A stretch of DNA of 34,871 bases. It comes from a virus. Taxonomy: Duplodnaviria > Heunggongvirae > Uroviricota > Caudoviricetes. The notes below the pieces were generated by a model that saw only the letters and a program-made list of their open reading frames with translations, made no database searches and was not told the origin of the DNA. How positions within the stretch are numbered: position 1 is the first letter of the stretch; every line of letters begins with the position of its first letter. Position numbers and translations under genes: made by a program. The DNA lies in the IMG/VR virus record IMGVR_UViG_2541047758_000018; one strand, given 5' to 3'. This document shows positions 2,435-30,957 of this stretch, one piece after another.

Positions 2435-2435
2435 C

Positions 2436-3070: not shown

Positions 3071-3082
3071 CGGAGACTGAAA

Positions 3083-4544: not shown

Positions 4545-4550
4545 GTGCCG

Positions 4551-4941: not shown

Positions 4942-5144
4942 AACCTACGATGTGCATATGGACCCCCTCGAACGCACAAGCCAGATCATCACACTGACAG
5001 AAGTGATTAATGACATTCTGGTGAGCAACTCTCCCTCACGAGACGAAAAACTGAAGGCGTTACTCGCGATATTGGATCTCGCCGTTCGTGACGTTCATTT
5101 CCTGCTGGAAGGTGGCGAAATGCCGGTAAAAACGGGGGCAACCA

Positions 5145-6412: not shown

Positions 6413-6422
6413 GGATGGAGCC

Positions 6423-6764
6423 ATGATTACTAAAAATTTCCGACTGAATGCGCTGGCAAATAAGTATGCGTCGGCACTGTATAACCACATTACCTCCACC
6501 AGCGGCGGGGACTATTTCATGGTTGATGCGGACGGCGAGGCCGTCCGTGTGGAAATCGTCAATGGAGTAAAAGGCGTTCGCAGCCTGATCGATAGCTACA
6601 CACTGGCAGCCATGAAAGTGTTCTACCCGCAGTGGGAAACCGTGGGGATCGAGCTTCTTGAACGTTGCGTCACTAAGGACGGATTGACTGACGTCGGGCG
6701 TGAGATATGGCAAAGCATGGTTAATGACATGGGCGCAACTGTAGCGGGAGGTTCTCATGCGTGA
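6423..6764 (+). CDS. Hypothetical protein (113 aa)
   Basis: ORF with ggatggag Shine-Dalgarno-like sequence upstream; operon position. Confidence 0.5.
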   Translation: MITKNFRLNALANKYASALYNHITSTSGGDYFMVDADGEAVRVEIVNGVKGVRSLIDSYTLAAMKVFYPQWETVGIELLERCVTKDGLTDVGREIWQSMVNDMGATVAGGSHA

Positions 6765-7128
6765 AAATGCAGAAATGGCGCTTAGCTCCGCAATCGGAGA
6801 GCAGGTGGCAAAGATTGCTGGTGCTGTGTGGATTCATAACCTTCATTCTACTGGTGAAGAGAAAATGGCAATTCAGACGCCAGAGGGACGCACCATTACT
6901 ACATCTCTGAAGCCGTCAGATGTTTGTGATCTGATTTGCGCATTCATGTACCCAGCAATGAGGACTGTCCACGGCGATAAGTGGAAACTTGCGACAACCG
7001 CTGAATTTGATATGTGGCTAAACAATGATGGCATGCTGACTGATTACGGAATAACCAAGTGGCAGATGCTGGTTAGCCATATCGCAAACGCTATAGACCA
7101 CGTGGGGTACGGTGATGCGAAACATTGA
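6757..7128 (+). CDS. Hypothetical protein (123 aa)
   Basis: Overlaps the upstream gene by 8 nt and the primase gene by 17 nt, typical phage-like coupling. Confidence 0.5.
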   Translation: MRENAEMALSSAIGEQVAKIAGAVWIHNLHSTGEEKMAIQTPEGRTITTSLKPSDVCDLICAFMYPAMRTVHGDKWKLATTAEFDMWLNNDGMLTDYGITKWQMLVSHIANAIDHVGYGDAKH

Positions 7129-9871
7129 TCTTATCCGTCAGGTTATCAGTGCGTCTGAAAACAACTGGCCTCATGTGCTGGGCTGCCTGAACATAAATGT
7201 CCCTGACTCTCCGCGCCGTCATGCTCCCTGCCCTGCATGTGGGGGCAAAGATCGATTCCGATTCGACGACAACGGGCGCGGTAGCTTCATCTGTAATCAG
7301 TGCGGCGCTGGTGATGGGCTGGATTTAATTAAACGCGTAAATAACTGCGACACAACAGAGGCGGCGTTGCTTGCCGCTGATGTTCTGGGTATTGATTACC
7401 GGACAACGGAAACACCAGAAGCCACCAGCCAGAAACGGGAACAACTGGAAACCGAGCGCCAGCGACGCGAACAGGAGCGCCTGAAAAGGGCAGAGAAGGA
7501 CGAACAACAAAGACGGGATACGTTTTCCCGTCAGTTTGATGACATGCGCAGAAAGGCTGTAAACGGCAAATCTGATTATCTGGTTGCGAAAGGGGTAGGT
7601 GATTTTACATTCCCCGTGTTGCCCGATGGATCTCTGTTGCTGGCGCTGGTGGATAAATCCGGCGCAGTCACAGCAGCACAGACTATTACCTCACATGGTG
7701 AAAAAAGACTCCTGACAGGTTCAGCAAAGCGAGGGGCATATCACGCCATAAACGCACCAGAAACAACACAGAGCATCTTAATCGCAGAAGGGCTGGCAAC
7801 GGCATTATCTGCCCATTTAATTCGTCCAGAGGCGCTGACAGTGGCGGCGATTGATGCCGGGAACCTGTTATATGTCGCCCAGGTACTGCGGGATAAATTT
7901 CCTTCAGCACAAATCATCATTGCTGCGGATAACGACCACAGCGAAGGAAGACAAAACACGGGGAGAATAGCAGCAGAAAAAGCAGCTTTATCTGTTTCTG
8001 GATGGGTGGCATTACCCCCGACAGATCACAAAGCAGACTGGAATGATTACCACCAAAAACACGGCATTAAATGCGCCACAGAAGCGTTCAATAAGTCAAT
8101 GTACCAACCACAGGGTAATGGCGTGAAACAGGAGCCACAGACCATTGAGGGAAGCGATTTTAAGGTTATGGATACCGACCCACTGAAACCAAGAATAGAA
8201 AGCCGCGAGGATGGTATTTATTGGGTATCTCCGAGAGCTGACAGCCAGAGTGGAGAAATCATCAATAACGAAAGCTGGTTATGTTCTCCGTTAAGCGTTA
8301 TCGGTACTGGCAGAGACGATAAAGACCAGTATCTCATTCTTCGCTGGCTGTCGTTTGGTTCTGAAACGCCGACAACCGCTGCCATTCCACTGGCTGATAT
8401 TGGTGAACGTGAAGGATGGCGCACACTTAAAGCTGGTGGGGTAAATGTCACGACCAAAAGCAGCCTCAGAGCAATACTGGCAGACTGGCTACAACGCAGT
8501 GGCTCTCGTGAATTGTGGCGTGTTGCTCATGCCACTGGCTGGCAATGCGGAGCGTACATCATGCCTGATGGGGAAATCATCGGAACACCTGAAAATCCTG
8601 TGCTGTTCAGCGGGAGAAGCTCAGCCGCAGCCGGATATACCGTCTCAGGGAGCGCGAAAAGCTGGCGTGATAACGTGGCGCGTCTGGCCTTTGGTAACTA
8701 TTCAATGATGACCGGGATCGGCGCAGCACTGGCAGCGCCATTGATTGGGCTGGTGGGCGCTGACGGGTTCGGCATTCATTTCTATGAGCAGTCGAGCGCA
8801 GGTAAGACCACCACGGCAAACGTGGCGAGCAGCTTATACGGCAACCCTGATTTACTGCGGCTGACGTGGTACGGAACCGCGCTGGGGCTGGCAAATGAAG
8901 CTGCCGCCCACAATGACGGACTAATGCCGCTTGATGAAGTTGGTCAGGGCGCTGATCCTGTCAGTGTTTCACAGTCTGCCTATGCGTTATTTAACGGTGT
9001 AGGGAAACTGCAAGGCGCTAAAGATGGTGGAAACCGGGATCTAAAACGCTGGCGTACAGTGGCAATCAGCACCGGAGAAATGGATTTAGAAACATTTATC
9101 GCTACTTCCGGGCGAAAAACCAAAGCCGGGCAACTGGTGCGACTGCTGAATATTCCGTTGAGTAAAGCAGTACGCTTTCACGATTACCAGAACGGAAAAC
9201 AGCACGCAGACGCACTGAAAGACGCTTACCAGCATCACCACGGCGCGTCCGGGCGTGAGTGGATTAAATGGCTGGCAGACCACCAGCAACAGGCTATTAA
9301 AACTGTTCGTGATTGCGAAAGCAGATGGAGAAGCCTGATCCCATCCGATTATGGTGAGCAGGTTCACCGTGTAGCCGCGCGATTTGCCATTCTGGAGGCC
9401 GCATTGTTGTTAGGCGAGGTTGTAACAGGCTGGGATGCTCAGACATGCCGTGATGCGATACAGCACAGCTATAACGCATGGTTGCGCGAGTTCGGCACAG
9501 GTAACAAAGAGCATCAGCAGATTATTGAACAAACGGAGGCATTTCTTAATGCCTATGGGCTTAGCCGTTTTGCACCATTTCCATACAGCCCGGCAGATTT
9601 GCCCATCAAAGATTTAGCCGGATACCGTCAGCGTGGAGAACATGACGAAAGTCCAATGATTTTCTACACATTCCCGGCCACATTTGAAAAGGAGATCGCA
9701 TGTGGTTTCAACGCAAAACAGTTTGCTGAAGTGTTGAAAAAAGCCGGGATGCTAACCCCACCAAACAGCGGTCGTGGATACCAAAGAAAATCACCACGTA
9801 TTCAGGGACGACAAATAAACGTTTATGTACTCAATTACCAGCCAGGAGATTACAACTCATCTGAAGAATGA
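7112..9871 (+). CDS. P4 alpha-like primase-helicase (Zn-ribbon + TOPRIM primase + C-terminal NTPase domain), 919 aa
   Basis: Zinc-ribbon motif PCPACGGKDRFRFDDNGRGSFICNQCGAGDGLDLI; TOPRIM-like acidic motifs ILIAEGLATAL and IIIAADNDHSEG; C-terminal region with Walker-A-like YEQSSAGKTT. Confidence 0.9.
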   Translation: MMRNIDLIRQVISASENNWPHVLGCLNINVPDSPRRHAPCPACGGKDRFRFDDNGRGSFICNQCGAGDGLDLIKRVNNCDTTEAALLAADVLGIDYRTTETPEATSQKREQLETERQRREQERLKRAEKDEQQRRDTFSRQFDDMRRKAVNGKSDYLVAKGVGDFTFPVLPDGSLLLALVDKSGAVTAAQTITSHGEKRLLTGSAKRGAYHAINAPETTQSILIAEGLATALSAHLIRPEALTVAAIDAGNLLYVAQVLRDKFPSAQIIIAADNDHSEGRQNTGRIAAEKAALSVSGWVALPPTDHKADWNDYHQKHGIKCATEAFNKSMYQPQGNGVKQEPQTIEGSDFKVMDTDPLKPRIESREDGIYWVSPRADSQSGEIINNESWLCSPLSVIGTGRDDKDQYLILRWLSFGSETPTTAAIPLADIGEREGWRTLKAGGVNVTTKSSLRAILADWLQRSGSRELWRVAHATGWQCGAYIMPDGEIIGTPENPVLFSGRSSAAAGYTVSGSAKSWRDNVARLAFGNYSMMTGIGAALAAPLIGLVGADGFGIHFYEQSSAGKTTTANVASSLYGNPDLLRLTWYGTALGLANEAAAHNDGLMPLDEVGQGADPVSVSQSAYALFNGVGKLQGAKDGGNRDLKRWRTVAISTGEMDLETFIATSGRKTKAGQLVRLLNIPLSKAVRFHDYQNGKQHADALKDAYQHHHGASGREWIKWLADHQQQAIKTVRDCESRWRSLIPSDYGEQVHRVAARFAILEAALLLGEVVTGWDAQTCRDAIQHSYNAWLREFGTGNKEHQQIIEQTEAFLNAYGLSRFAPFPYSPADLPIKDLAGYRQRGEHDESPMIFYTFPATFEKEIACGFNAKQFAEVLKKAGMLTPPNSGRGYQRKSPRIQGRQINVYVLNYQPGDYNSSEE

Positions 9872-9895
9872 GCTTCTTCATGTGCGTAGAAAAGG

Positions 9896-10010
9896 TGTTG
9901 GTTCAGTTGGTTCAGTTGGTTCAATTTGTAAAGAGTATTGTTTTATAAGGATTTTATTCTTTTTATTGAACCAACACTGAACCAACAACACGGTATTTTG
10001 AACCAACACA
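9896..10010. repeat. Putative replication origin: three tandem GGTTCAGT-type iterons, AT-rich spacer, three inverted GAACCAAC iterons
   Basis: gtgttggttcagttggttcagttggttcaa (9896-9925), then about 40 bp of AT-rich sequence, then ttgaaccaacactgaaccaacaacacggtattttgaaccaacaca (9966-10010); sits immediately 3' of the primase gene, as ori/crr does in P4 and as ori does in PICIs. Confidence 0.6.
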
Positions 10011-10328
10011 ATGTGACTGAATTGATGCGCACAACACCTGGCTGGCATCAGAGAGTGTTTTACGAGACTTTCGTAAAATCCTGTGTACAAGGGCGTGACG
10101 TTTTTGAAAGTGAGCACTACGAAATTTTCGTAGTTCAAAAAACAGCCTCTGAGAAGTTGTTATGCCTGTTCAGCAAACCATCCGCATAGCTGATCGCGAA
10201 TCAAATTACCAATGGAGCCAGAAGCAAGGGCAGAACTGAAAAGCACCTGCCGTGAAGAGTAATGCGATACCATAAATATAGTTTTTAGAGTCCATAAAAA
10301 ACCTGTCAAAACCTGACACACAGAACGA

Positions 10329-10360
10329 TGCCACCAGCTACTGAGCGGTGGCATTTTTTT
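10329..10360 (+). terminator. Putative Rho-independent terminator
   Basis: gccacc-agctactgagc-ggtggc hairpin followed by attttttttg. Confidence 0.55.
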
Positions 10361-10456
10361 TGTGCTATTTGTTTCATATTTTGCAATTACGATGATGAAT
10401 ATTGCGATTTGTGAAACTATAATAACTGTTGTTTTATACAGTTCTAAGGGGGCGTT

Positions 10457-10618
10457 ATGGCTATTTCAGTAAAGCCGGTATTGATAAGTGAGAAGCAAAT
10501 GGAAGCGATAAAGAAAATTCAGGAAGAGCAGCGTAAAAAATCAGGAATTGGAGTAGCGCCAACTCTGCATGAAATTGCACGAGGGTTAATAGATAAGGCG
10601 CTGGCAGGCTGTATGTGA
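10457..10618 (+). CDS. Small protein (53 aa), possible ribbon-helix-helix-type regulator at the head of the ejection-protein operon
   Basis: Not in the ORF track (below 60 aa). ATG at 10457 is preceded by aagggggcg Shine-Dalgarno; translation MAISVKPVLISEKQMEAIKKIQEEQRKKSGIGVAPTLHEIARGLIDKALAGCM; about 80 bp of AT-rich promoter-like sequence lies between the terminator and the start. Confidence 0.4.
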   Translation: MAISVKPVLISEKQMEAIKKIQEEQRKKSGIGVAPTLHEIARGLIDKALAGCM

Positions 10619-10634
10619 AAATGGATGGCATCGC

Positions 10635-11096
10635 ATGGAACTAAAATTTATTGATAACCCTGTGCGATTACAGGCCTTTCTTAACGAGCCAGGCAATACC
10701 GAAAATATTGTTGAGCCGGGGCACACGTACTACATCAAGCCTGATGCGGTATATCTCGGCATCTACGAAGGATTAGTGCTGGCTGGCGTTCATGAAGTGC
10801 GTAACTTCTGGCATAGCGTTGTTGAATGCCATGCGGTGTACGACCCCGGATTCCGTGGTGAATATGCACTGCAAGGGCATCGATTATTCTGCAAATGGCT
10901 TCTCGAAAACTCACCATTCCTTAACAGCATCACTATGGTTCCTGACACCACGAAATACGGACGGGCAATTATCCGTTTGCTTGGCGCTACCCGTGTTGGT
11001 CACCTTGATGATGCTTATATCAGATGTGGTAAACCCGTCGGCGTAACGCTTTATCAGTTAACTCGGCAACAATATAAGGAATTCAGCGAATGTTAA
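10635..11096 (+). CDS. Hypothetical phage-like protein (153 aa), first large gene of ejection-protein-like operon
   Basis: ORF 16 nt downstream of the small regulator-like ORF; no motif recognised; position is analogous to P22 gp14 or T7 gp13 ahead of the ejection proteins. Confidence 0.5.
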   Translation: MELKFIDNPVRLQAFLNEPGNTENIVEPGHTYYIKPDAVYLGIYEGLVLAGVHEVRNFWHSVVECHAVYDPGFRGEYALQGHRLFCKWLLENSPFLNSITMVPDTTKYGRAIIRLLGATRVGHLDDAYIRCGKPVGVTLYQLTRQQYKEFSEC

Positions 11097-11767
11097 TTAC
11101 CCATATAGCTCATAAACATCTCAATCGTGCCGTATACGAAAAAGGCGGTGATGGTGGTGCCTCTAAAGCTCAGGCGAAGGCCCAGCAGCAGGCAATTGAT
11201 TTGCAGCGCGAGCAGTGGAATACGGTGATGAATAATCTCAAGCCGTATGCAGAAGTCGGATTGCCTGCTTTACAACAACTGCAAGGACTGATGACTCTGG
11301 AAGGGCAGAATAAAGCCGCGAATGATTTCTTTGGTTCTGGTTTATATAAAACACAGGCAGATCAGGCCCGTTATCAGAACCTTGTCTCAGCAGAAGCTAC
11401 CGGGGGGCTTGGCTCAACAGCTACCAGTAACCAGTTATCTTCCATTGCGCCCATGCTTTATAACAATTGGCTCAGTGGGCAAATGCAAAATTATGGAAAC
11501 CTGCTAAATGTCGGGATGAATGCGGCATCAGGGCAGGCAACGGCAGGGCAAAACTACGCCAATAATACCGGACAACTCTTGCAGGGGCTTGGCGCTATTC
11601 GTGCAGGTCAGGCGCAGCAGCCATCCAGTCTTGCGCGTGGTATTGGTGGGGCAGCATCAGGCGCTTTAGCGGGTGCGCAACTTGGTTCCGTTGTTCCTGG
11701 AATAGGAACTGCGGCCGGCGCTATTGGTGGTGGGCTTATTGGTCTTGTTGGGGGGCTTGGATTCTAA
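11090..11767 (+). CDS. Glycine-rich protein (225 aa) with hydrophobic Gly/Ala C-terminal tail; podovirus ejection/internal-virion-protein-like
   Basis: C-terminus GIGGAASGALAGAQLGSVVPGIGTAAGAIGGGLIGLVGGLGF is membrane-insertion-like; Q/N-rich body; operon-coupled to neighbours. Confidence 0.5.
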   Translation: MLITHIAHKHLNRAVYEKGGDGGASKAQAKAQQQAIDLQREQWNTVMNNLKPYAEVGLPALQQLQGLMTLEGQNKAANDFFGSGLYKTQADQARYQNLVSAEATGGLGSTATSNQLSSIAPMLYNNWLSGQMQNYGNLLNVGMNAASGQATAGQNYANNTGQLLQGLGAIRAGQAQQPSSLARGIGGAASGALAGAQLGSVVPGIGTAAGAIGGGLIGLVGGLGF

Positions 11768-13086
11768 TGGCGACATGGCAACTTGGCGGGCTGCCTAGCA
11801 TGGCACCGCAAAATGATAATGCTCCTCGTTCTTCCGTTCCTCAGCCTGTGCAGTATCAGCAGCAGCCAAACGTAGGTTTAATGGCGCTACAGGGGCTAAG
11901 AGGCGTTGCTGAGATTAATCAGCAGGCGCAAATTTCCCAGCAGTTAAAAGAATATCAGGCACGGTTGGGTAGTGCGGTAGCTAATAATGATCGTGTTGGC
12001 GTGCAGAAGTTAATGGCCCAGTATCCCCAGTTTATGGCTGATTCTCAAAAACAGATGGGATTCATTGATGCTGAGCAAAATCGACAGACCGCTGACGCTG
12101 CCATGAATCTGCGTCTTGCGTCACAAACTGGAGATCCACTGACCATGCAGAAGGCCATTCAGCAGGCAAATCCAGTATTACAGCGATTTGGTCTTCCTGC
12201 TGAAGAGGTTTATCAGTCTTGGCAGAATGACCCACAGGAATTCAACAGAATCACTGACCTCATCCACCTCCATGCTGATCCAAATAGTTACTTTAGTGTT
12301 CAAGAGAAGCAGCAAGGGCAGAGCATTGCACAGCAGAACGCAGATACATCCGCATATAATGCTCAGGTTAATGCGGAACAGGGTAATCGACGTCTCGATA
12401 TGGAGCAGTTCAAAGTCCTATCCGATAACCAACTACGCACGAGAGAAATGGTTCTGAAAGCACGACTTGGACGTGCTCAAAATGACATCGAGAGAGACAA
12501 GCTCAATGCTGAACTGAGCAAGGTACAGCAGGCGAAAGTGGAGAAGATGAACGATAAAATTAATACTGTTGCAGGTAACATCGACTCCTTGAACTCTGCG
12601 CTTGAAGTGGGTCATGAACTGGCGGGAATTGTAGGGAAACATCCTTCGGCCGTTACCCGCTCGCAGAACTATAACCCCCTGACGCTGGGGTTTGGATTCC
12701 TTCCTGATGTAGCAGAAGACACACGAAGCCTACGCGCCAAAGCTGATGAATACAACCTAAAGGTTATTCTGCCTAGCCTCAAAGGGACTTTTGGCTCTAA
12801 CCCAACCGAAGGGGAAAGGGCTGCCCTTATGCAATCTCAAAATGGCATTAAGTCAGCAACCAGCAATGAGGCATTTTTGCGAGAGTTGAATAAAGCGCAG
12901 GACGTAATTATTCGAATGCAGAAACGACAGATTGCCGGGCTCGGTATTCCTGTAACCAAATCTAAGGACGAAGAAACTGATACCAAAATGCTGTTGCAGG
13001 ATCCTTCACTAGTTAAGGATTATGTGACCGCACATGGCTATCTGCCGGAAAGTTACTATCAGGCAAAACTTAAGGGATGGCAATGA
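11767..13086 (+). CDS. Gln-rich coiled-coil-like protein (439 aa); ejection/internal-virion-protein-like
   Basis: ATG overlaps the upstream stop (TAATGG); composition and size resemble the middle ejection protein of podoviruses (P22 gp20 / T7 gp15 class). Confidence 0.5.
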   Translation: MATWQLGGLPSMAPQNDNAPRSSVPQPVQYQQQPNVGLMALQGLRGVAEINQQAQISQQLKEYQARLGSAVANNDRVGVQKLMAQYPQFMADSQKQMGFIDAEQNRQTADAAMNLRLASQTGDPLTMQKAIQQANPVLQRFGLPAEEVYQSWQNDPQEFNRITDLIHLHADPNSYFSVQEKQQGQSIAQQNADTSAYNAQVNAEQGNRRLDMEQFKVLSDNQLRTREMVLKARLGRAQNDIERDKLNAELSKVQQAKVEKMNDKINTVAGNIDSLNSALEVGHELAGIVGKHPSAVTRSQNYNPLTLGFGFLPDVAEDTRSLRAKADEYNLKVILPSLKGTFGSNPTEGERAALMQSQNGIKSATSNEAFLRELNKAQDVIIRMQKRQIAGLGIPVTKSKDEETDTKMLLQDPSLVKDYVTAHGYLPESYYQAKLKGWQ

Positions 13087-15414
13087 TGGCACAACTGACA
13101 GAAAAACAGAAAGCCTATTCCCGTCATCTCGATGAAAAATATGGTTTCCCATCAGGGACGATGGAAACATTAGTTGGCAATGAATCTAGTGGTAACGGAA
13201 GTGCCGAGTCACCGAAAGGAGCTAGAGGATTTGCTCAACTGATGCCCTCAGTAATGAGTGATGCTGGTTATCGTGGAACAGATCCGCGCTCACTGCCATT
13301 TGAAAAGCAAATGGATATCGCAGCAAACCATCTCAATAAAGGAATGAAGCGATTTGGTGATATAGGTATGGCATTGGCTGGGTATAATTCTGGCTATGCT
13401 CGTATTAATGCCGTCAGAAACGGTAAATCTACACTGCCAGATGAAACGGCTAATTACGTAAGTAAATTTGCAGATGCTGGAATAATCCCTGATGACAGTG
13501 AAATCTTGCAGTTTGCACAAACCAGTCAACATCGCAATCTTCAGCAGCCTGACTACTCAGAGCTTGATAAAGAAATCTCTCAGGTGGGAGATATTTCTGC
13601 ATGGGAAGCAAAACGTCAGCAATTTAAGAACATAGAAGCAGGACTACCAACAGCCAGTTCATGGGAGCAGAAAAGAGCTCAGTTTCTCGCCGATGAAAAT
13701 GCCGGGGAACCGCAGCAGCAAGTAGCCAAGTCTAACCTTAATCCTGAGATGGAATATCTTTCGCCAGGACTGAAAGCTGCGCCAGAGCAGATGGCCAGAG
13801 GGATTGCTAATATACCGTTTGATGTAATGGACGCAGGCGTGGGGGTAGTCAATGCGGCGCAATCAGCCGGAGCATGGGCAGCTCAGAAGCTTGGTGTGGG
13901 TGATGGCACATACACGCCCATATCACCTGTCTTTCGCCCAGTAGACCAACCTACAGATCCATACGCGCAGGCTGGTGAGCAGCTAGCACCTTACCTTATT
14001 ACAGGATTAGGTGCAGGAAAGGCAGCTACCGCAGCTTCTTCAGTTGCCAACGCTCCACGTGCTGAACGTGCGGCCACAAAGGTGGCTAGTATGTTGGCAG
14101 AAAACCTGCCAGGTACATTGGTGAACGCCCAAAAGAACGGGCAGATCAGCCCAGAAGACCTAGCAAAAGAGACAGGTATTGGCCTAGCAGGATCGCTAGG
14201 AGCACGCGCTTTAATAAAGAGCGGACAGACAGCCAGTGACGTAATGCGAGATGTATTGCGGAGTAATACAAATCAATCAGGCCATGTGTTAGGGGCAGCA
14301 AATACTCTGGAAACCGCCAATGATGTATCGAAAGCAGCGCGTTCTGCCGTAGGCCGAGAGCATATCGCATCGCAGGCATCAAACGTCAGAGATGATGTCG
14401 CTAAGGCGGCGAAAATCACTGGTATTAATATCAACACCCTGACGCCTGGAATGCGCTCAGGTAGTCGTGGAATTGCCCAAGCAGAAGGTGTTCTGGCATC
14501 AACTCCTGGGAATGTTCAGGATGCTCACCTTACGGCCTTCAATGAAATATCCTCAAAGTTGAATAAGCAGTTGTCTGATTTCGGTGCTGAGTCTGGAAGC
14601 GCATCAGAAAAAAGCGCAGCAATTAAAGAGCGCATCATCGCGAGCCTCAGTGATATGAAAACAGCAGAGAATATGGCATGGGCAGAACTGCGAAGCACGA
14701 TGCCACGCGAAAGGATGAAAATGAGTAATGGGATGGCTGTCGTCCAAGCAGAAAAAGCAGCCAATGTTCCACTCAGCCCGGAGATGAAACAGTTTCAGGC
14801 TGCCAACAACCAAGGTGGCGGCATAACCTTCGACGGGATGAAGGCATGGCGTGCTAAGTTTGCTGATGCTGAACAAGCAAACACCCGGGCAGGTAAGGCC
14901 AATGCCGCCCGGATTGCCGGAGAAATGCGCAGAGCTATCACTGATGACATGCGCATCATGGCTGAAAAAGGAAACTTCCTCACAGAATGGCAGAAAGCTA
15001 ACGATCTCTCTAAAAGTTACATTATCGCCAAACAAAATGCCGAATCTGTTTTTGGTCGAGATCTCGCATCAGACGCTATGGTAAGAAAAGGTGCCGATAC
15101 GCTTAAGGCATCCGCAAACACTGGAACGGGAGCTTTTCACCGTCTTATCTCCGCGCTGCCGGAAGCAGAACGCCAACCTGCAATAGCATCTATTCTTCAG
15201 CATGCTGTGGCGCAGGGAGAGAAGGGAGGAATCGGTGAAGAGTCAGGTATCCAGTATTTTGCCAAGCTCATGACCCAGCAGAATGTAAACGCCATCAGTC
15301 GTCATGCGCCAGATCTCGGTAGAATGATGAAAGAGTTCGGTGTACTCGCTAAAGCCAGTACCAGACCGCAGCGATACGTAGAGCGCACGGGAAGAACAAC
15401 TGAGGCTCTCAAAA
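13077..15414 (+). pseudogene. Phage internal-virion/ejection-type protein with N-terminal lytic transglycosylase (SLT) domain, 3'-truncated by IS911-like insertion (native part about 779 codons)
   Basis: SLT signature ESSGNGSAESPKGARGFAQLMP ... ALAGYNSGY near the N-terminus. The ORF reads through the IS end at 15415 and terminates inside the IS at 15569, so the last 51 codons are IS-derived. Confidence 0.7.
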
Positions 15415-15444
15415 TGAAGTGGTCAACAAAAACTGGCCACCGAG

Positions 15445-16628
<1,184 letters not shown>

Positions 16629-23595: not shown

Positions 23596-24849
23596 TTACT
23601 TCAGACAGTGAGTTTCCCATTCCTTGACTGCAAATGTATCCATCATACCTGAAATATAGTCAACCACTGCTCGTTTTTTGCTGATTTTAAATATATAGGA
23701 ATCTGGTTGGGGTAAGGTGAATTTAAGTTCAGGAGGCAGAAATTTATAATTCTCTCCTTCATTGTAAAAGTCATATAAATCCCTGATTATTTTATTTCCC
23801 CTGAACTCATAGGTGAGGATATTACGTTTTCGCATGATGACTTTAAAGAGAAGTTTTTTGAGCCCTTCGGATAACGCATTCAGTTTCCCGAATCCCAGTT
23901 CCTGAAAACCATTCAGGTTCGTTACTACAGAAATATCTGCAACGAGGCGATTGACAATATTTGAAGTTAACTCCTTGCGGAATATGATGGCAAATTCTTC
24001 TGAGGTTTTCAGTAAGTTAGCCTGAAAAGCGGTGTTTCTCGACTGAGTAACGATTTCCCTGAACTGTTCCCTCGCTCCCCGGAATTCGTCAGAAATCTGA
24101 AACTCATATTCAATATCTTCAATCGTGACCATGTTCCTGCTAAGGGCATCTTCCAGGTCATGCGCGGCATAGGCAATCTCATCCGCGAGATCCATTATCT
24201 GCGCATCAATCGTTTTCTCTCCGGGATTCAGATCGAGCTGATTTTCAGCAAGCAGGTTAATGTAAAAATAGTAATCATCATCATAAATGAACTTGCCGGC
24301 AGTAGCTGCAGCGCGGGGGATGGGATACTTAACAACCGAAAGTAAACTACGGTGAGTCAGATTTAATCCGTTGCAGTATGAAAATTTCTTCTCCAGTTTT
24401 CTCAGGATACGTAGCGCCTGTGCATTGCCTTCATAGCCGCCGATTTCTTCAGACAGTTCATTAAGCAGTTTTTCACCGGAATGACCGAAAGGAGGATTTC
24501 CGATGTCATGCGCCAGCGCTGCCAGTTCAACCACCACCGGGTTAACCAGTTTGAGGTCTGACGCGATACTTCGGGCGATCTGAGCAACCTCAAGACTGTG
24601 CGTTAATCTGTTTCTGTTGAATTTTTCAGGATCAATTTCAAAAAGTTGCATCTTTCCCTGCAGCCTGCGAAATGATGATGAATACAGAATACGCGCATAA
24701 TCCCGTTGATAATTATCCCGGCTTCTTGTTTCACCATCGGGGGACGGGTGCTCTCTGGTATCAGCAAGCGCACTGATAAGTTTTTGTTCCTGCTCTTGCG
24801 CAAATTCTTTTAATTCATTGCAGTACATATTTCTTCCTTTCTGGAGCAT
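23596..24849 (-). CDS. dGTP triphosphohydrolase-family HD-domain protein (short form, 417 aa) - probable antiphage dNTP-depleting dGTPase
   Basis: Aligns by eye to E. coli Dgt motifs: FRRLQGKMQLF (IRRLQQKTQVF), RLTHSLEVAQIARSIA, LAHDIGNPPFGHSGE, YEGNAQALRIL, MDLADEIAYAAHDLEDA, DYISGMMDTFA; shorter than housekeeping Dgt (505 aa). Confidence 0.85.
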   Translation of the reverse strand: MLQKGRNMYCNELKEFAQEQEQKLISALADTREHPSPDGETRSRDNYQRDYARILYSSSFRRLQGKMQLFEIDPEKFNRNRLTHSLEVAQIARSIASDLKLVNPVVVELAALAHDIGNPPFGHSGEKLLNELSEEIGGYEGNAQALRILRKLEKKFSYCNGLNLTHRSLLSVVKYPIPRAAATAGKFIYDDDYYFYINLLAENQLDLNPGEKTIDAQIMDLADEIAYAAHDLEDALSRNMVTIEDIEYEFQISDEFRGAREQFREIVTQSRNTAFQANLLKTSEEFAIIFRKELTSNIVNRLVADISVVTNLNGFQELGFGKLNALSEGLKKLLFKVIMRKRNILTYEFRGNKIIRDLYDFYNEGENYKFLPPELKFTLPQPDSYIFKISKKRAVVDYISGMMDTFAVKEWETHCLK

Positions 24850-24978: not shown

Positions 24979-25845
24979 CTAAGTGAGGTTCTGGTTTTCA
25001 AATTGTTCCGGACTGAGGCCGCCACACCAACTGTGCCGCCGCCACCGATTGTAATCACATTCGATATAATTAAACACCGTTGCCCGCATTATTTCCCGGC
25101 TGATAAAGTGTTCTCCATGGATACATTCCACTTTCAGCGAATGAAAGAAGCTTTCCACGCAGGCATTATCGTAGCAGCAACCTTTTGCGCTCATACTTCC
25201 ACGCAGATTATGCCGCTTCAGTTGCGCCTGATAATCTGCTGAACAGTACTGGCCTCCACGGTCCGTGTGAACGATAACGTTCCGGGGCCTCTTACGCCGC
25301 CACAGCGCCATCTGCAGGGCATCGCAGGCCAGTTGCGCCGTCATGCGTGGCGACATTGACCAGCCAATAACGGCACGTGACCACAGGTCAATGACCACTG
25401 CCAGATACAGCCAGCCTTCATCTGTACGTAAGTACGTGATGTCTCCTGCCCACTTCTGGTTCGGGCCACTGGCGTAAAAATCCTGCTCCAACAGATTTTC
25501 TGACACAGGCAGGCCGTGTGCGCGGTAGCTGACCGGGCTGAACTTCCGGGAGGCCTTTGCCCTCAGTCCCTGACGGCGCAGGCTTGCCGCCACGGTTTTT
25601 ACGTTAAAGGGGTAACCCTGAGCACGCAGTTCATCCGTCAGGCGTGGGGCACCGTAACGCTGTTTTGACCGGGTAAAAGCCGCGAGGACAACGCTGTCGC
25701 AGTGTTGGCGGAACTGCTGACGCGTGCTTATCCTTGTCCGCCGCTGACACCACGTATACCAGCCGCTGCGGGCCACCCGGAGCACGCGGCACATTGCTTT
25801 GATGCTGAACTCAGCCTGATGTTTTTCAATAAAGACATACTTCAT
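24979..25845 (-). CDS. insF: IS3 transposase OrfB (InsF)
   Basis: [32 protein letters not shown] ... [34 protein letters not shown] ... HTDRGGQY is the IS3 InsF sequence as I recall it. Confidence 0.9.
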
Positions 25846-26150
25846 TTCAGGCGCTTCGCGAAGTATGTCGCGGCCTTTTGGAGGATAGCCAGCTCTTCAT
25901 CCCGTTCTGCCAGCTGGCGTTTGAGACGTGCAATCTCGGTAGACATCTCCAGTTCACGTTCAGAAGACGTCTGCTGATTTTGCTGTTTACTGCGCCAGTT
26001 GTAGAGTTGTGATTCATACAGGCTGAGTTCACGGGCTGCGGCAGTAACACCGATGCGTTCAGCAAGCTTCAGGGCTTCACTGCGAAATTCAGGCGAATGC
26101 TGTTTACGGGGTTTTTTACTGGTTGATACTGTTTTTGTCATGTGAGTCAC
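25842..26150 (-). CDS. insE: IS3 transposase OrfA (InsE)
   Basis: [52 protein letters not shown]...; start may be the internal ATG (MTKTV). Confidence 0.9.
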
Positions 26151-26297
26151 CTCTGACTGAGAGTTTACTCACTTAGCCGCGTGTCCACTATTGCTGGGTA
26201 AGATCACCCTGTGAACCATGTTGATATTGATACTATATTGACTATATGCCATACAGGTGGTAATGATTAGTTACTACCATACAGGAAAAGGTAGAAA

Positions 26298-27278
26298 ATG
26301 ACTCTTTTGGTAACGGCTGAGTGTGTTGACGATCTGATAAACGATGTTCATCAAGCTATCCTAGCGGATGGACTCAGTAACGATCCTACAAAAGGATCAA
26401 CTCTAGAGATTCTTGGTGCCTATCTTGTCCTTACCGACCCCCGCCGAAGAATAAGTAGAACAGAATCCCGAGGAAAACTAATTAGTTGCTTAGGTGAATT
26501 TCTGTGGTATCTCTCAGCTCAGAACGATCTTGAGTTTATAAAACACTTCATACCACGTTACGCTGAATCCGCTGAGTCAGATGGGAAAATACATGGTGGT
26601 TACGGGCCACGGTTGTTTAATATGCGTGGTTTATATAATCAGCTAAAAAATGTCATCAACCTTTTGCAGGAGAAAAAACCTACCAGACGTGCAGTAATAC
26701 AGCTTTTCGATGCCTCAGACTTGGTGCCCTCAAAAACTGAACAGCGAGAATACGTAGATATTCCTTGTACAATATCTATGCAGTTTATTGTCAGATGTGA
26801 AGAGCTGCATCTATTTGTTTGTATGCGTTCTAACGATGCCTTTATGGGGCTGCCTCATGATGTATTTGCGTTCACGATGCTACAGGAATTAGTTGCCCGC
26901 TTGATAGGATGCGAATTGGGTCACTATCATCACTTTGTATCCAGCCTACATCTCTATAAAAATGATTTAGAAAAAGTGAAGGCTCTTCAGAAAGAGGGGT
27001 TCATGAGCACCCTACCAGTCATGGGATCGATGCCTGAAATGCATTCCTTAGATGATATCTTACCCCTGCTTGAGGCAGAAAAAGCTCTTCGAGAGAATAA
27101 GGAATTTGATATTGACACTACTTCCTTGAATGACTACTGGAAGGATTTATTGCGTATATTAAAAATCCACTTTTTGTTACGTTCACATACACCCAACCAC
27201 AAAGGACTAGCCTTCCAAGAGTTGGCTGCAATGAAAAATCAGGAATATCGGTTTATTTTTGAAGGAAGACTACAATGA
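26298..27278 (+). CDS. Thymidylate-synthase-fold pyrimidine C5-modifying enzyme (ThyA / dCMP-hydroxymethylase-like), 326 aa
   Basis: Aligns by eye to E. coli ThyA: LISCLGEFLWYL (IIHELLWFL), RRAVIQLFD (RRIIVSAWN), nucleophile Cys in IPCTISMQF (APCHAFFQF), MRSNDAFMGLPHD (QRSCDVFLGLPFN), HLY (THLY). The specificity Asn is replaced by Asp, as in dCMP hydroxymethylase. Confidence 0.8.
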   Translation: MTLLVTAECVDDLINDVHQAILADGLSNDPTKGSTLEILGAYLVLTDPRRRISRTESRGKLISCLGEFLWYLSAQNDLEFIKHFIPRYAESAESDGKIHGGYGPRLFNMRGLYNQLKNVINLLQEKKPTRRAVIQLFDASDLVPSKTEQREYVDIPCTISMQFIVRCEELHLFVCMRSNDAFMGLPHDVFAFTMLQELVARLIGCELGHYHHFVSSLHLYKNDLEKVKALQKEGFMSTLPVMGSMPEMHSLDDILPLLEAEKALRENKEFDIDTTSLNDYWKDLLRILKIHFLLRSHTPNHKGLAFQELAAMKNQEYRFIFEGRLQ

Positions 27279-28219
27279 AAAGACATAATCAAATCAGTCA
27301 GCTGGTTAGTAATTTGCAAAATTTTAGCCGCAATGAACACAACCTAAATGGTCTAAGTTCTCCTGCCTGCTTTGATGTTTTAGCCTGTCAGATTATCGAC
27401 AGTATACGTCGTATACGCTATGTGGAAACTCTTGCATTACGGACCGATTATATGACTCCGTTACGAAAAGAGCCGAATTCTGATGTTTTTGATCCTCTCC
27501 GCGCTGCCTGCCTTTATCTTCGTGACAACAATTACGATGAAGCCTGCTGGCTGGTTTTCCTTGCCACACATTTCGGCAAGAGTAACAAAACCGGCTGGAT
27601 TTTGTGTCGAGATATATACAGTGGACTCGGTACACAAACGTGGACATGGGATACGATAACTGATGACTTTGCTGCTTTTGAACAATGGTTCGCCAGCGTC
27701 TCTGATGAGTTGACAGCTAACAGTAGCCTAAGACAATATGGTAACCATCGGAAATATGAAACGAAGAAATATCACTCTCGTCGTTCAATACCTGCGGTTT
27801 TTCGCTCTTACATCGGATTCATTGGTGCTACACACAGTCATGAGGCTAGGTTTGCAGAGGCCAAGAGCTTTTCATCTTCACCAGAATCTTTATTCGAACT
27901 ATTGTATTCAGGGCTAAATGCCGTGATCTCATTTGGACGAACCGCAAAATTTGATTACCTAACTATGCTCAAGAAAACGGGACTTCTGGATGTAGAGCCG
28001 GGTCATGCTTTTCTGAATGGAGCAACCGGGCCCCTTCAAGGAAGCCGGCTACTTTTCAGCAATAGCCGGACTGCTGGTGACACAATAGACGTATTGAATG
28101 AAAAACTAGCTGACCTTGCGGCAATTATTCCTGCACCCTACTTGAGAATGCAGGTTATTGAAGATGCGTTGTGCAACTGGCAGAAATCACCTGACCGTTA
28201 TGTCTATTTCGGCGGCTGA
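27275..28219 (+). CDS. Hypothetical protein (314 aa), translationally coupled partner of the ThyA-like enzyme; function unknown
   Basis: ATG overlaps the ThyA-like stop (ATGA at 27275-27278); no motif I can assign with confidence. Confidence 0.6.
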   Translation: MKRHNQISQLVSNLQNFSRNEHNLNGLSSPACFDVLACQIIDSIRRIRYVETLALRTDYMTPLRKEPNSDVFDPLRAACLYLRDNNYDEACWLVFLATHFGKSNKTGWILCRDIYSGLGTQTWTWDTITDDFAAFEQWFASVSDELTANSSLRQYGNHRKYETKKYHSRRSIPAVFRSYIGFIGATHSHEARFAEAKSFSSSPESLFELLYSGLNAVISFGRTAKFDYLTMLKKTGLLDVEPGHAFLNGATGPLQGSRLLFSNSRTAGDTIDVLNEKLADLAAIIPAPYLRMQVIEDALCNWQKSPDRYVYFGG

Positions 28220-28221
28220 TA

Positions 28222-29304
28222 TCAGACGATATCTTCTTTACGGAATCTCACTTTAAACCGATTAAGGTGAGAAAAAGGTATATTACCTTCATGCTGCAAA
28301 TATCCCAGTACGATCCCTTTGGATACCCCCATTTTCCTAGCTAACCGGATGATCTCTTTCCAATGCCGGACACCATAGCGACTAAGTTGCTGCCGGTATT
28401 CTTCTGGGATAAGAACATCAACGGCAAATTTATCTGCTTCCTTTTCCTCTTCCGACGAAAGACTATCTTTACCTTCTACGCGAACTCGGACAGCTTCATG
28501 CAAGATGAGATGCCCAATCTCATGAAACAGCGTAAACCAAAAATGGTCATCGGTCAGATAACGGAAACTCATGACTAGGGTTGCGCGATCTGGTGTAAAA
28601 AAGCAGGTAGCACCACTTGCCCGACATCCCTTTGGCGTTGGCAACACAACGAGAGAAACTCCAGCAGTGGCGAGAAGGTCGCGAATGTAAGGGATAAAAA
28701 TCCTCATGTCGGGTTCATTTGTAGCTTTGCGCAGTTCTGGCAACAATGCTATCAGCACCTCTTTATCCCATACAGCACAGTTTTGGTTTGAGGTAAGTTG
28801 TGCAGCCCTAGTCAGCCACACCAAATCGGCCATAGGCTCGGTTGCCAGATTAAGAGATTTACGAAAAGCGACCAAAGGAGCATCTGACTGAATTTTATAA
28901 AAAAAATCATTGACGGAATTTATTCCGAAAAACGATAGGCAGTGCTGGAATTTACTTTCCCGAGTTGTAGTTTTGGGGATCCAACCAAACTCCATCATAT
29001 CACGTACAGGCAATGATTCGAGCCAATCATTATTCACTTTCTCGAGGTATCCAATTTGCTGGCGATAAGCGACTTCGCGCTTGATCCAGAAGTCTGTCGA
29101 TACGTTGAATAACTCCTCAAGCTTACAAGCCAGAGACTCATTGAGTCGGATTTTTCCTTCAAGAAGTTGCTGACCCCGGATAAGAGACAATCCAATCCTC
29201 TTACTCAGTTCTTCACCAGAAAGCCCATGTTCATCCATTAGATCTATAATTGTATCACCGGGTGGAGATACCCAGTCAGGCTGGAAGTCCTGCGTAACTA
29301 TCAT
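28222..29304 (-). CDS. HTH (XRE-type) + ImmA/IrrE-family zinc metallopeptidase fusion protein (360 aa)
   Basis: N-terminal HTH GDTIIDLMDEHGLSGEELSKRIGLS; C-terminal HExxH motif FHEIGHLILHE with downstream EKEAD, typical of the ImmA/IrrE (COG2856) peptidase domain. Confidence 0.75.
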   Translation of the reverse strand: MIVTQDFQPDWVSPPGDTIIDLMDEHGLSGEELSKRIGLSLIRGQQLLEGKIRLNESLACKLEELFNVSTDFWIKREVAYRQQIGYLEKVNNDWLESLPVRDMMEFGWIPKTTTRESKFQHCLSFFGINSVNDFFYKIQSDAPLVAFRKSLNLATEPMADLVWLTRAAQLTSNQNCAVWDKEVLIALLPELRKATNEPDMRIFIPYIRDLLATAGVSLVVLPTPKGCRASGATCFFTPDRATLVMSFRYLTDDHFWFTLFHEIGHLILHEAVRVRVEGKDSLSSEEEKEADKFAVDVLIPEEYRQQLSRYGVRHWKEIIRLARKMGVSKGIVLGYLQHEGNIPFSHLNRFKVRFRKEDIV

Positions 29305-29627
29305 TTCACGTCACCTATGAACACTAACCGTATCCGGCTAACTCGGGACCAGTTAATTGTATTATCTTGATTTTTGGGCTGAACTGTATTCCCACAGACA
29401 AATCCCATTTTTACATCACCGAGAATGGTAATTGTAATACACTCTTCCCCATCCTCAAAGCAGACCTCCGGCGAACCTACGGGCAACAGTAATATGTTGT
29501 CTGTCACGGAAAGATCGGAAAGTCGCGAGCGTAGTCTTGATGCCACTTTGTCACCAAAGATCTCATTTGCCTCATGCATACTCTCGCAAATAGTCCTTAA
29601 CTTCTTGCTTTGAAAGGTAATGAACAA
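29301..29627 (-). CDS. Small protein (108 aa) overlapping the start of the HTH-peptidase gene; possible toxin-like partner (RelE/HigB-like?), unverified
   Basis: 4-nt overlap with the downstream HTH-peptidase gene implies co-translation; weak resemblance to killer-protein N-termini (MFITFQSKKLRTI...); family call is a guess. Confidence 0.35.
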   Translation of the reverse strand: MFITFQSKKLRTICESMHEANEIFGDKVASRLRSRLSDLSVTDNILLLPVGSPEVCFEDGEECITITILGDVKMGFVCGNTVQPKNQDNTINWSRVSRIRLVFIGDVK

Positions 29628-29728
29628 AATTATCCACTTTTATTTTTCTTGGTTGCTACGTTTATAGCAAACTCAACGCTCATTCACAAAATGAGATGTA
29701 GCGAATTAATGGACTCTGCACATATTAA

Positions 29729-30034
29729 ATGTTAATGATGGACTTAAAATCACGGATTCGTAAGGGAAACATGAAAGGTAAACATCAAGACACTAAAGCC
29801 CTGTCTGACGTGCTAGCGGAAATGCAACGGCAGGATGCCAAATGGGGGGCAGACCGTAATCAAGATCCTTTTATCTGGGGAGCGATTCTCGGAGAAGAGG
29901 TGGGAGAATTTCATCAGGCTGTCCTCCATGATCGTTTTGGTGGTAAAGCAGCCGGTACCAGTAGGGAGGAAGCAGTACAAATTGCTGCTGTTGCACTGCA
30001 AATCATCGAATATTATGATCGCGTAATAGATTGA
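29729..30034 (+). CDS. Small all-alpha protein, possibly MazG-like nucleotide pyrophosphohydrolase (101 aa; true start may be internal at 29771)
   Basis: ILGEEVGEFHQAV (E-E-x-x-E motif) and REEAVQIAAVALQIIEY resemble the MazG/NTP-PPase metal-binding helices. Confidence 0.35.
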   Translation: MLMMDLKSRIRKGNMKGKHQDTKALSDVLAEMQRQDAKWGADRNQDPFIWGAILGEEVGEFHQAVLHDRFGGKAAGTSREEAVQIAAVALQIIEYYDRVID

Positions 30035-30336
30035 TAAATTAGAATTAATCAACTAAGAGTCTTTTACACGCGAAGATGAACTCTGGCAGCCATCTACCTT
30101 CGTGGGCCTGTAGAACACATCTAATTGCAATACTCCCAGTTAATCACTAACCAGCCTCTCCAGTAAGGCTGGTCGATTAGGTTTAATTAAACAGATATAA
30201 CAAGCAATTCACTTGGTATTACGCGGTTCACACAGACTTCTTTAGTTGTGTCATATCCTATAACTTTCAGAGGCTTATTTACGGTATTATCACGAACGGT
30301 GCAAAAGTGGCTCTTCCGCAACCTAGGTGGAGATTT

Positions 30337-30957
30337 TCATGCCAGTGGACTCATTACCCTCTGCCTAAGTAGTTCAAATCCGGCTCGACCATACATCAGA
30401 CGTTTCAGCATCTTCAGGCGATTTACATGACCTTCGACAACACCGTTACTCCAGCGGCTGCTGGTTGCCTCACATATAGCCGCGGCATCAGCTTCCATCC
30501 CCGCAGCCACGCGCCGAAGTTCTGCTGAACCGTTTTCGTGGACTCGAGTGAACCAACTGCTTAGATTTGATTTATTTGGGGTTTTCAGAATACGGTAGAA
30601 CTCAAGTACTAGTTGCTGCGCTATTTTCAGCGCCGGTTCTTTTTCACACATCAGACTAATAAATCGGGAAGCATAATTTTCTTCACCCCTGATTATTATC
30701 CAGGGCATCAACCAGCGGCTTACCCGGGACACTGAAGGAAGTCTGGCGGCAGTAGTAACTGGTGGGTTCCAGCCTTTACGCCATTTGGCAACAGCATCCC
30801 TGACGATGGTTTCACTGCCTGTAACCCCCGGCCACCATTTCCCGCCATATCCAGTCGCTGGTGTGCTGAATTGGTCATGTATGAAGGAAGATATCAATGG
30901 TGGTATCTCCCTTTCAAAAGGAAGTGAAAAGCTTGATGCCTGCTGCCAGGCAATCAA
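30337..30957 (-). pseudogene. ISL3-family transposase remnant (C-terminal part intact in frame, N-terminal part decayed)
   Basis: C-terminus WSNGVVEGHVNRLKMLKRLMYGRAGFELLRQRV fits the ISL3 C-terminal pattern SNG..EG.N.[KR].K.LKR..YG...F; the upstream two thirds of the ORF are not transposase-like, and short broken ORFs (30977-31174, 31265-31474) follow on the same strand. Confidence 0.55.

Follow-up and report, generated by a model that had tools for sequence, protein, structure and literature searches.

A HigB-fold/HigA-peptidase cassette convergent with a thymidylate synthase-like/aGPT3 operon: a conserved four-gene unit and probable anti-phage defence system

PD-lambda-2 of E. coli (Vassallo et al., 2022) is an abortive-infection defence system in which a HigB-like component A is followed by component B, a fusion of an Xre regulator and a peptidase; B alone is toxic, A rescues, and only defence requires the third gene, C (PMC9519451). 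CapH/CapP of the cyclic-oligonucleotide-based anti-phage signalling system (CBASS), ImmR/ImmA and DdrO/IrrE likewise join an M78 peptidase with an XRE-type helix-turn-helix (HTH) protein in a damage- or infection-responsive switch. A related cassette is present in the Caudoviricetes record IMGVR_UViG_2541047758_000018 of IMG/VR, whose 34,871 nucleotides are referred to here as the window. The cassette comprises a gene for a small protein of 108 aa and a gene whose 360-aa product joins a HigA-type HTH to an M78 (ImmA/IrrE) metallopeptidase, and it runs tail to tail against an operon of a thymidylate-synthase-superfamily (ThyA-like) gene and a gene of the aGPT-Pplase family (aGPT3). These four genes are one mobile unit of two operons, inherited together across at least 12 phyla, and probably constitute an anti-phage defence system with the cassette as its control half. 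The features of the block, some of them assigned from sequence or predicted structure, are as follows.

29301..29627, minus strand: small gene, HigB/RelE-fold protein of 108 aa, TTG start (open reading frame (ORF) listing)
28222..29304, minus strand: HigA-type HTH and M78 (ImmA/IrrE) metallopeptidase fusion of 360 aa, ATG start (ORF listing, Pfam, PADLOC, AlphaFold2)
29080..29262, minus strand: HigA-like helix-turn-helix domain, residues ~15-75 (Pfam HTH_3 21-73, NCBIfam antidote_HigA 15-75, Foldseek)
28510..28524, minus strand: HEIGH zinc-binding motif, H261/E262/H265 (sequence; family invariance)
29301..29304, minus strand: ATGA stop/start overlap, translational coupling of the small and peptidase genes (sequence)
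29661..29689, minus strand: putative sigma-70 promoter of the cassette, -35 TTGTGA, 17-nt spacer, extended -10 TGcTATAAA (inferred by reading the sequence)
28220..28221, no strand: 2-nt tail-to-tail junction of the two operons, without a terminator (ORF coordinates, hairpin scan)
27275..28219, plus strand: aGPT3, gene of the clade-3 aGPT-Pplase/amino-acid:DNA-transferase (AADT) family, 314 aa (Pfam PF18746, PF18724)
26298..27278, plus strand: ThyA-like gene, 326 aa, predicted dCMP 5-hydroxymethylase (MilA match, residue markers)
29771..30034, plus strand: MazG-like gene, divergent from the cassette, an accessory of the block in Enterobacterales (RefSeq product name)

The original prediction, made from the sequence alone, had proposed that the cassette and the ThyA-like pair belong to a single unit, and this is borne out by searches anchored on three of the genes and by the distribution of the block in E. 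coli. A search anchored on the peptidase (one genome per species, 80 loci, 36-94% identity) recovered the small ORF and the peptidase gene, convergent with aGPT3 and the ThyA-like gene, with or without an additional gene X, in all 80 loci. The small ORF, whose lack of conservation had been named beforehand as telling against the proposal, proved to be conserved, since a family hidden Markov model (HMM) places it directly upstream of the peptidase gene in 80 of the 80. The loci belong to Gamma-, Beta- and Alphaproteobacteria, Desulfobacterota, Myxococcota, Acidobacteriota, Bacteroidota, Rhodothermota, Ignavibacteriota, Planctomycetota, Verrucomicrobiota and Chloroflexota, as well as to one Heliobacteriaceae metagenome-assembled genome. 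Among IMG/VR loci anchored on aGPT3, the peptidase gene was found in all 26 that could be evaluated and the small ORF in 24 of 24, and a ThyA-anchored search of IMG/VR gave 22 close matches, all of them on the aGPT3-anchored contigs. The 4.2-kb stretch with the block was found in 232 of 5426 complete E. coli genomes; a 195-bp remnant only is left in about 20, and half of the block is found in none. The NCBI annotation pipeline (PGAP) annotates four genes at the E. coli block, including the divergent "MazG-like family protein." In Serratia grimesii, a five-gene block that includes the MazG-like gene adjoins proBA, a different chromosomal place, and the flanks are unrelated between loci: clustering of 357 flanking ORFs by homology gave groups of 7 members at most. 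Furthermore, the pairwise-distance matrices of the four proteins are correlated (r 0.70-0.86), with r 0.86 for the peptidase against aGPT3 and a maximum of 0.17 in 200 permutations. An independent HigBA-type toxin-antitoxin (TA) locus that came to lie beside the ThyA-like operon by chance would have a precedent in the stand-alone pairs of HigB-like and HigA-M78 genes that do exist; the complete association in both directions, the conserved junction and the co-divergence contradict it, and chance adjacency, to which we allow next to no probability, was rejected on the co-occurrence data. Insertion sequence (IS) elements inside the block of two carriers, Enterobacter hormaechei (locus L011), where aGPT3 is split by ~1.9 kb, and E. 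coli SCEC020001 (H19), where ISApl1 is inserted, suggest that the block is occasionally inactivated.

The limits of this association become visible among distant relatives of the peptidase. On plasmids of Leptospira, Rhizobium and Brucella, homologues at 37%, 33.5% and 31% identity, respectively, keep the convergent pair of "hypothetical" and "thymidylate synthase" genes, while homologues at 33-23% identity retain a small upstream gene of RelE/ParE type and have other neighbours. The pair of Gloeocapsopsis has an IS element as its neighbour, that of Paraburkholderia a 161-aa hypothetical protein as its partner, and that of Tenacibaculum no partner. On pRadio3 of Deinococcus radiophilus (L119), a RelE-like gene and a HigA-M78 gene are followed co-directionally by a Fic gene, beside a type I restriction-modification (R-M) system and a DUF262 gene. 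An HTH-M78 homologue on pCMU01 of Methylorubrum extorquens (L118), 29% identical, is not accompanied by a small gene and is divergent from a cyclase/E2/TIR operon. Because the distant pairs are found with Fic, with the 161-aa protein or with no partner, the HigB-like and HigA-M78 pair is a portable module with exchangeable partners, of which the present subfamily is committed to ThyA-like/aGPT3. The Methylorubrum and Deinococcus loci are candidates for further three-part systems built on the HTH-M78 module.

The gene layout described by the original prediction was confirmed in its particulars: the 108-aa ORF overlaps the start of the 360-aa HTH-peptidase ORF by 4 nt (ATGA), the stop codons of the convergent operons (28217-28219 on the plus strand and 28222-28224 on the minus strand) are separated by 2 nt, and a promoter/terminator scan found no terminator-like hairpin at the junction between them. 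The same scan gave counts that were not above those of shuffled controls. In related loci, the stop-to-stop distance between the peptidase gene and aGPT3 has a median of 3 nt and is at most 25 nt in 100 of 105, the ORFs overlapping in 27; the tail-to-tail junction without a terminator is thus a conserved feature in its own right. In 79 of 102 loci, the start of the peptidase gene overlaps the small-gene stop by 4, 8 or 11 nt, and the ThyA-like and aGPT3 ORFs also overlap by 4 nt. The 108-aa ORF is a real gene, with a ratio of nonsynonymous to synonymous substitution rates (dN/dS) of 0.14-0.26 in five enterobacterial genera. Taken with the retention of the small ORF in every locus and the close abutment of the convergent stops, this dN/dS indicates that the arrangement of small gene, peptidase gene and aGPT3 is not due to chance. 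The two genes of the cassette differ in their start codons: the peptidase gene begins with ATG in 94 of 106 loci, whereas the small gene, at its conserved N-terminal position, uses TTG in 60 of 78 loci, GTG in 10 and ATG in 7; in the 45 loci in which an in-frame stop rules out an upstream start, TTG is used in 34. Such wide maintenance of a weak start codon, across phyla, is unusual and suggests that a small amount of the HigB-fold protein is selected for.

The stretch at 29661-29689 (minus strand), plausibly a promoter with an extended -10 box, is kept in Yokenella, Raoultella, Serratia and Pectobacterium, and was missed by a consensus promoter scan. A TTGCTA-N6-TAGCAA element spotted by eye, at first taken as an inverted repeat, is better read as this extended -10 box; no convincing inverted repeats lie upstream of either E. 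coli operon, and no Rfam family was found in 25900-30400. An IS3 element (orfA/orfB; 24979-26150, minus strand) ends ~150 nt upstream of the ThyA-like start codon and has the same position in the other E. coli carriers; the native promoter region of the ThyA-like operon in E. coli may have been truncated or replaced.

The fold of the small protein was resolved by structure prediction only, because sequence searches are nearly blind to it. The E. coli protein matched nothing in scans with Pfam (including PF05015, HigB-like_toxin, at its curated threshold), NCBIfam and PADLOC, and a profile search of PDB sequences returned nothing significant. The AlphaFold2 model, built on an alignment of 50 family members, reached a predicted local distance difference test (pLDDT) score of 92.4, shows the beta-alpha-alpha-beta3-4 order of RelE, and in a Foldseek comparison with the PDB had RelE/ParE-superfamily toxins as all of its top 43 matches. 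The small gene also lies upstream of, and is coupled to, a HigA-type HTH partner, with the 4-nt overlap and a coupling that is conserved, as is typical of HigB. The model thus indicates a HigB/RelE-fold protein, and the search for a toxin fold that the original prediction had proposed had a divided outcome: structure points to RelE/HigB, and sequence models barely match. The invariant residues of the family are R11, C14, D38 and W93. The C-terminus has no DYH-type motif of the kind expected for HigB. Close homologues of identical length are found in Citrobacter, Serratia and other genera, some of them labelled "killer suppression protein HigA" in the source databases; the gene at 29301-29627 is left without annotation by PGAP in E. 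coli RefSeq genomes.

The 360-aa protein is better served by sequence models. Pfam places HTH_3 at residues 21-73 and Peptidase_M78 (PF06114) at residues 237-332 (42 bits against a cut-off of 22), which substantiates the proposed fusion of an XRE-type HTH with a HExxH (H261-H265) ImmA/IrrE peptidase, and NCBIfam antidote_HigA covers residues 15-75. The PADLOC model PD-Lambda-2_B (PDLC03982) matches residues 15-341 with an E-value of 3.3e-30, whereas matches to capP, RmrA and Lit are weaker and confined to the catalytic core. In the AlphaFold2 model (pLDDT 87), the N-terminal domain has as its best Foldseek match the HigA of Proteus vulgaris (27-28% identity, template modelling (TM) score 0.71-0.78), which is the cognate partner of the very HigB that best matches the small protein. 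The C-terminal half matches CapP (7t5t) and IrrE/PprI (3dti, 8sln), in keeping with the kinship to infection-responsive HTH/ImmA-IrrE switches that had been suggested earlier. The residues H261, E262 and H265, and E287 downstream of them, are invariant in 71 family sequences; judged by its residues, the peptidase has an intact catalytic HExxH...E motif. The 360-aa protein is therefore homologous to component B of PD-lambda-2 and structurally similar to CapP and IrrE. The cleavage of a separate cognate HTH repressor, a hallmark of M78 switches, has no counterpart here, the HTH being fused in the same polypeptide, and clustering of the flanking ORFs revealed no separate repressor gene conserved in the block.

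The present system thus shares with PD-lambda-2 a HigB-like small gene followed by a HigA-type HTH-M78 fusion, which the component B model covers over nearly its full length, and a location on a mobile island. On the other hand, the small protein has no match to PD-Lambda-2_A, and component C, which in PD-lambda-2 is co-directional and related to a P4 antitoxin, is absent, its place being taken by a convergent two-gene pyrimidine-modifying operon. Since components A and C fail, the present system is not a member of PD-lambda-2 and is a variant of PD-lambda-2-like systems with a new nucleotide-modifying arm. The HigB-HigA pair of P. vulgaris (Rts1 hig locus) differs in that the present HigA carries a C-terminal metallopeptidase extension of ~280 residues and the C-terminal catalytic motif of HigB is not evident in the small protein, PF05015 remaining below significance. 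In CapH/CapP, ImmR/ImmA and DdrO/IrrE, by contrast with the present cassette, the HTH and the peptidase are not one polypeptide, there is no added HigB-fold partner, and the controlled operon is divergent or co-directional, not convergent. RmrA of RosmerTA and the repressor-antitoxins of the spr1629 family are similar HTH-M78 fusions that serve as "antitoxins" of defence or TA modules, but in PADLOC and NCBIfam they match on the catalytic core only, with E-values of 1e-10 or weaker, far below the family cut-off, and their partners differ.

The roles tested in PD-lambda-2 would, if they carry over by analogy, reverse the earlier suggestion that the small ORF is the toxin: the peptidase protein would be toxic and the HigB-like protein would rescue. 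They also lend themselves to the main rival explanation, which is possible, if doubtful, and in which the HigB-like/HigA-peptidase pair is itself an abortive-infection effector (an RNase or a proteolytic toxin) and ThyA-like/aGPT3 is a required third component that senses or makes a modified pyrimidine (e.g., phage 5-hm-dCMP or 5-hm-dUMP) and relays this to the peptidase. The toxicity of PD-lambda-2B alone with rescue by A and the need for C in defence only, the toxin fold of the small protein, its conserved weak TTG start, which is typical of dose-limited toxins, and the interchangeable third genes of the distant pairs all fit such an effector. However, the invariant R11, C14, D38 and W93 have no obvious correspondence to the catalytic residues of HigB, and a pathway of two enzymes, served by accessory NTP pyrophosphatases, has the look of an output rather than of a sensor.

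The term "ThyA-like" used in the original prediction holds for the superfamily, Pfam finding Thymidylat_synt in the 326-aa protein, but is imprecise, in that the enzyme resembles MilA and T4 gp42 and carries cytosine- and deoxyribose-type residues. The best solved relative is the CMP 5-hydroxymethylase MilA (E-value 1.6e-41, residues 26-304), far below which thymidylate synthases (TS) score. Specificity markers have been defined for MilA, T4 gp42, the dUMP hydroxymethylase of SPO1 and E. coli TS: at one position (TS Asn177/MilA Asp186), cytosine enzymes have Asp and uracil enzymes Asn, and at two others, deoxy-specific enzymes have Ser and Arg, whereas the CMP-preferring MilA and BcmA have Ala and Lys (A176/K133 in MilA) (PMC5175136). 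When these residues were mapped on the MilA alignment as defined there, D188 was found at the Asn177/Asp186 position in 96 of 96 sequences, none of which has the uracil-specific Asn, and S178 (invariant) and R130 (94 of 96) are of the deoxy type, unlike A176/K133 of MilA. The nucleophile C157, the catalytic E67 and the ribose-binding H218/Y220 are likewise invariant in the 96 sequences. Because cytosine-type and deoxyribose-type markers occur together, the enzyme is predicted to be a dCMP C5-hydroxymethylase (or methylase) and not a TS. The gene is named "thymidylate synthase" in RefSeq despite its cytosine-type residues, a label that is probably wrong.

The relationship to MilA raises the possibility that the block is a biosynthetic pathway for a 5-hydroxymethylcytosine-derived metabolite, in the manner of MilA/MilB and the bacimethrin pathway, with an attached regulator and no part in immunity. 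The best solved homologue and a weak nucleoside-2-deoxyribosyltransferase-like neighbour in 4 loci would suit this explanation. It is nevertheless highly improbable: S178/R130 are of the deoxy type, unlike MilA and BcmA, the block has no consistent MilB-type glycosidase or dNMP kinase and no tailoring or export genes, its flanks are unrelated, it stands in a defence-island context, and a machine-learning study predicts defence. In any case, the enzyme has in common with MilA and T4 gp42 the Cys, Glu, His and Tyr of catalysis and the Asp that specifies cytosine, and the MazG-like or NUDIX neighbour recalls the dCTPase gp56 of T4.

The partner enzyme, aGPT3, matches PF18746 (aGPT-Pplase3; E-value 4.8e-90) and PF18724 (ADDT; 9e-59), and clade 3 is of modest size, comprising 550 clusters at 50% identity among 1.84 billion representatives; no relative was found among PDB sequences. 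Its residues E296, D297 and C300 are invariant in 15 aligned sequences, and E296/C300 align with the QxxExxLCxW motif that it has in common with the phage M6 ADDT ORF; in clade-2 AADT, the Cys and a neighbouring Glu are essential (PMC8989533). In the thymidine hypermodification clusters of phages, a dUMP hydroxymethylase is combined with a 5-hmdU DNA kinase (5-HMUDK) and an aGPT-Pplase/AADT of clade 2 (Lee et al., 2021). The present operon resembles these clusters in pairing an AADT-family protein with a Glu/Cys motif and a TS-family hydroxymethylase, and differs in that aGPT3 belongs to clade 3 and is bacterial, that no DNA kinase accompanies it (Pfam finds no kinase domain in the genes of the block) and that the TS-family enzyme is of the cytosine type.

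Such a pathway could also be part of an R-M- or addiction-like module, in which the enzymes hypermodify a pyrimidine of the host DNA, the TA-like pair keeps the module in place or kills cells from which it is lost, and the convergent overlap times expression as in convergent R-M operons. The AADT family does act on DNA (PMC8989533), the convergent terminator-less layout is conserved, and the block is mobile and found on plasmids too. Against these points, the block contains no kinase, dNMP kinase or nuclease, and the family is absent from 50,697 GenBank phage genomes, the usual home of such pathways, among which no aGPT3 homologue was found. In addition, 5-hydroxymethylcytosine in E. coli DNA is open to attack by McrBC-type enzymes. 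We regard an R-M-like module as improbable; both it and the metabolite pathway are less likely than an effector role of the HigB-like/HigA-peptidase pair.

The defence system proposed here, with the cassette in control of a pyrimidine arm, is accompanied in many lineages by accessory genes. Gene X (266 aa) lies between aGPT3 and the ThyA-like gene in 49 of the 80 genome loci (L018-L087; e.g., L023:3386-4183, minus strand) and is absent from the E. coli block and the window. It has 49 invariant residues and the motifs GLNPS, ACHLDL.PYAT, LNG and GFNHN.QSS, and found no match in Pfam or among PDB sequences; membership of the UDG superfamily, presumed from the motifs only, is a guess that we do not claim. 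Divergent from the small ORF stands a gene that differs between lineages and repeatedly encodes a nucleotide enzyme: a MazG-like one in Enterobacterales, one of a second MazG-like cluster in 5 loci, a NUDIX enzyme in 7, and a weakly nucleoside-2-deoxyribosyltransferase-like protein (Pfam E-value 0.04) in 4 (example loci for the divergent genes: window 29771-30034; L023:472-855; L113:10359-10751; L068:6861-7301). The MazG-like gene of the window, which has no Pfam match, accompanies the block in Serratia, Yokenella, Raoultella, Pectobacterium and IMG/VR loci. A MazG-like or NUDIX neighbour resembles the dCTPase of T4, which feeds the dCMP hydroxymethylase.

The genomic context and earlier predictions are in keeping with defence. 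The E. coli block lies inside a mosaic integrative island with genes for a P4-type integrase, Ash, a primase and P22-type ejection proteins. Also on the island are an anti-phage dGTPase-like gene, a type I R-M system, IS3 and what remains of an ISL3 element. The 148 flanking ORFs scanned were heterogeneous, comprising some integrases, some defence genes and many housekeeping genes; hence the E. coli locus is the only one for which the term "defence island" has good support. DefensePredictor (Science, 2026) gives WP_000174035.1, identical to the ThyA-like protein, the label "Predicted novel defense gene" (PMC13092281). The same study highlights a predicted aGPT-Pplase and HTH system in which one gene is homologous to a known defence gene, and says that none of these domains had been validated (PMC13092281); the architecture of that system may be that of the present block. 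A different E. coli system, consisting of TS, dNMP kinase, 5-hmdU DNA kinase and Nmad, was validated (PMC13092281). The validated system resembles the present one as an E. coli defence assembled from phage-like nucleotide- and DNA-modification enzymes, a TS-family protein included, and differs in consisting of other proteins (WP_087900468.1 and others), with neither aGPT3 nor a HigBA-peptidase cassette.

A feasible course of events in the proposed defence may be as follows. The HigB-like protein would bind the HigA domain and restrain the peptidase protein, as PD-lambda-2A neutralises PD-lambda-2B, while the HTH would autoregulate the cassette and the TTG start would hold the dose of the small protein low. 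A cue from infection or DNA damage would fire the proteolytic switch, which would unleash the pyrimidine arm, partly via the two operons transcribing into each other. The accessory MazG-like or NUDIX enzyme would then hydrolyse dCTP to dCMP, which would receive a hydroxymethyl group at C5 and pass to the aGPT3 enzyme for further processing, and phage replication would be stopped as the deoxycytidine pool or the DNA is drained or poisoned. Control of a pyrimidine output arm by the cassette, in the service of defence, is the best explanation that we can offer for the block as a whole, and we consider its prospects of being correct to be about even. A more far-reaching version is rather unlikely to hold: that a host-encoded, phage-like pyrimidine hypermodification pathway is itself the immune effector, turned on by the HigB/HigA-peptidase switch, and poisons replication by writing 5-hydroxymethyl-cytosine-derived adducts into the pool or the replicating DNA, with the terminator-less convergence as a built-in transcriptional toggle.

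Several observations weigh against a defence system controlled by the cassette. For this system, we infer defence, toxicity, substrates and regulation alike. A limiting dose of the HigB-like protein fits awkwardly with a pure model in which A neutralises a toxic B. Only 1 of 55 small-protein family members matches the Pfam HigB-like_toxin model, and weakly (E-value 0.0017), and 0 of 55 match the PADLOC PD-Lambda-2_A model, so that the fold class only is held in common. Regulation of the ThyA-like pair by the cassette, as allowed for in the original prediction, drew no support from a crude search for an operator-like word common to both upstream regions: in 92 loci, the longest words shared between the 200 bp upstream of the small ORF and the 200 bp upstream of the ThyA-like gene gave no signal against cross-locus controls (means of 8.2 and 7.8 nt). 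Clade-2 AADTs require a 5-hmdU DNA kinase, which has no counterpart in the block. The flanks in other taxa show a mild enrichment of defence genes only, among many housekeeping genes, and the correlated divergence of the four proteins could stem in part from shared host phylogeny.

If the proposed control of a pyrimidine arm is correct, a HigBA/ImmA-IrrE proteolytic switch would be tied to the DNA-hypermodification chemistry that phages use against restriction, here recruited by the host, two subjects so far treated separately, and clade-3 aGPT-Pplases would have a first function. The deoxycytidine pool or DNA would be attacked in a new way, beside the known nucleotide-depletion defences, and the block would represent a second, very widespread case of PD-lambda-2-like systems composed of a toxin-fold protein, an HTH-peptidase and a variable third part.

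Outside the block, positions 1-15569 of the window have the appearance of a P4-type satellite or integrative element, with the following genes.

1-1260: integrase
3083-3916: AntA
4085-5152: Ash
7112-9871: Toprim/DUF927 primase
11090-15569: P22 gp7-like, injectosome translocase-like and SLT-domain ejection-protein genes

The anti-phage dGTPase-like ORF of the island (417 aa; 23596-24849, minus strand; PADLOC dGTPase E-value 1.4e-109) is intact in the window, and in two RefSeq relatives the annotation gives its counterpart as a pseudogene with a frameshift.

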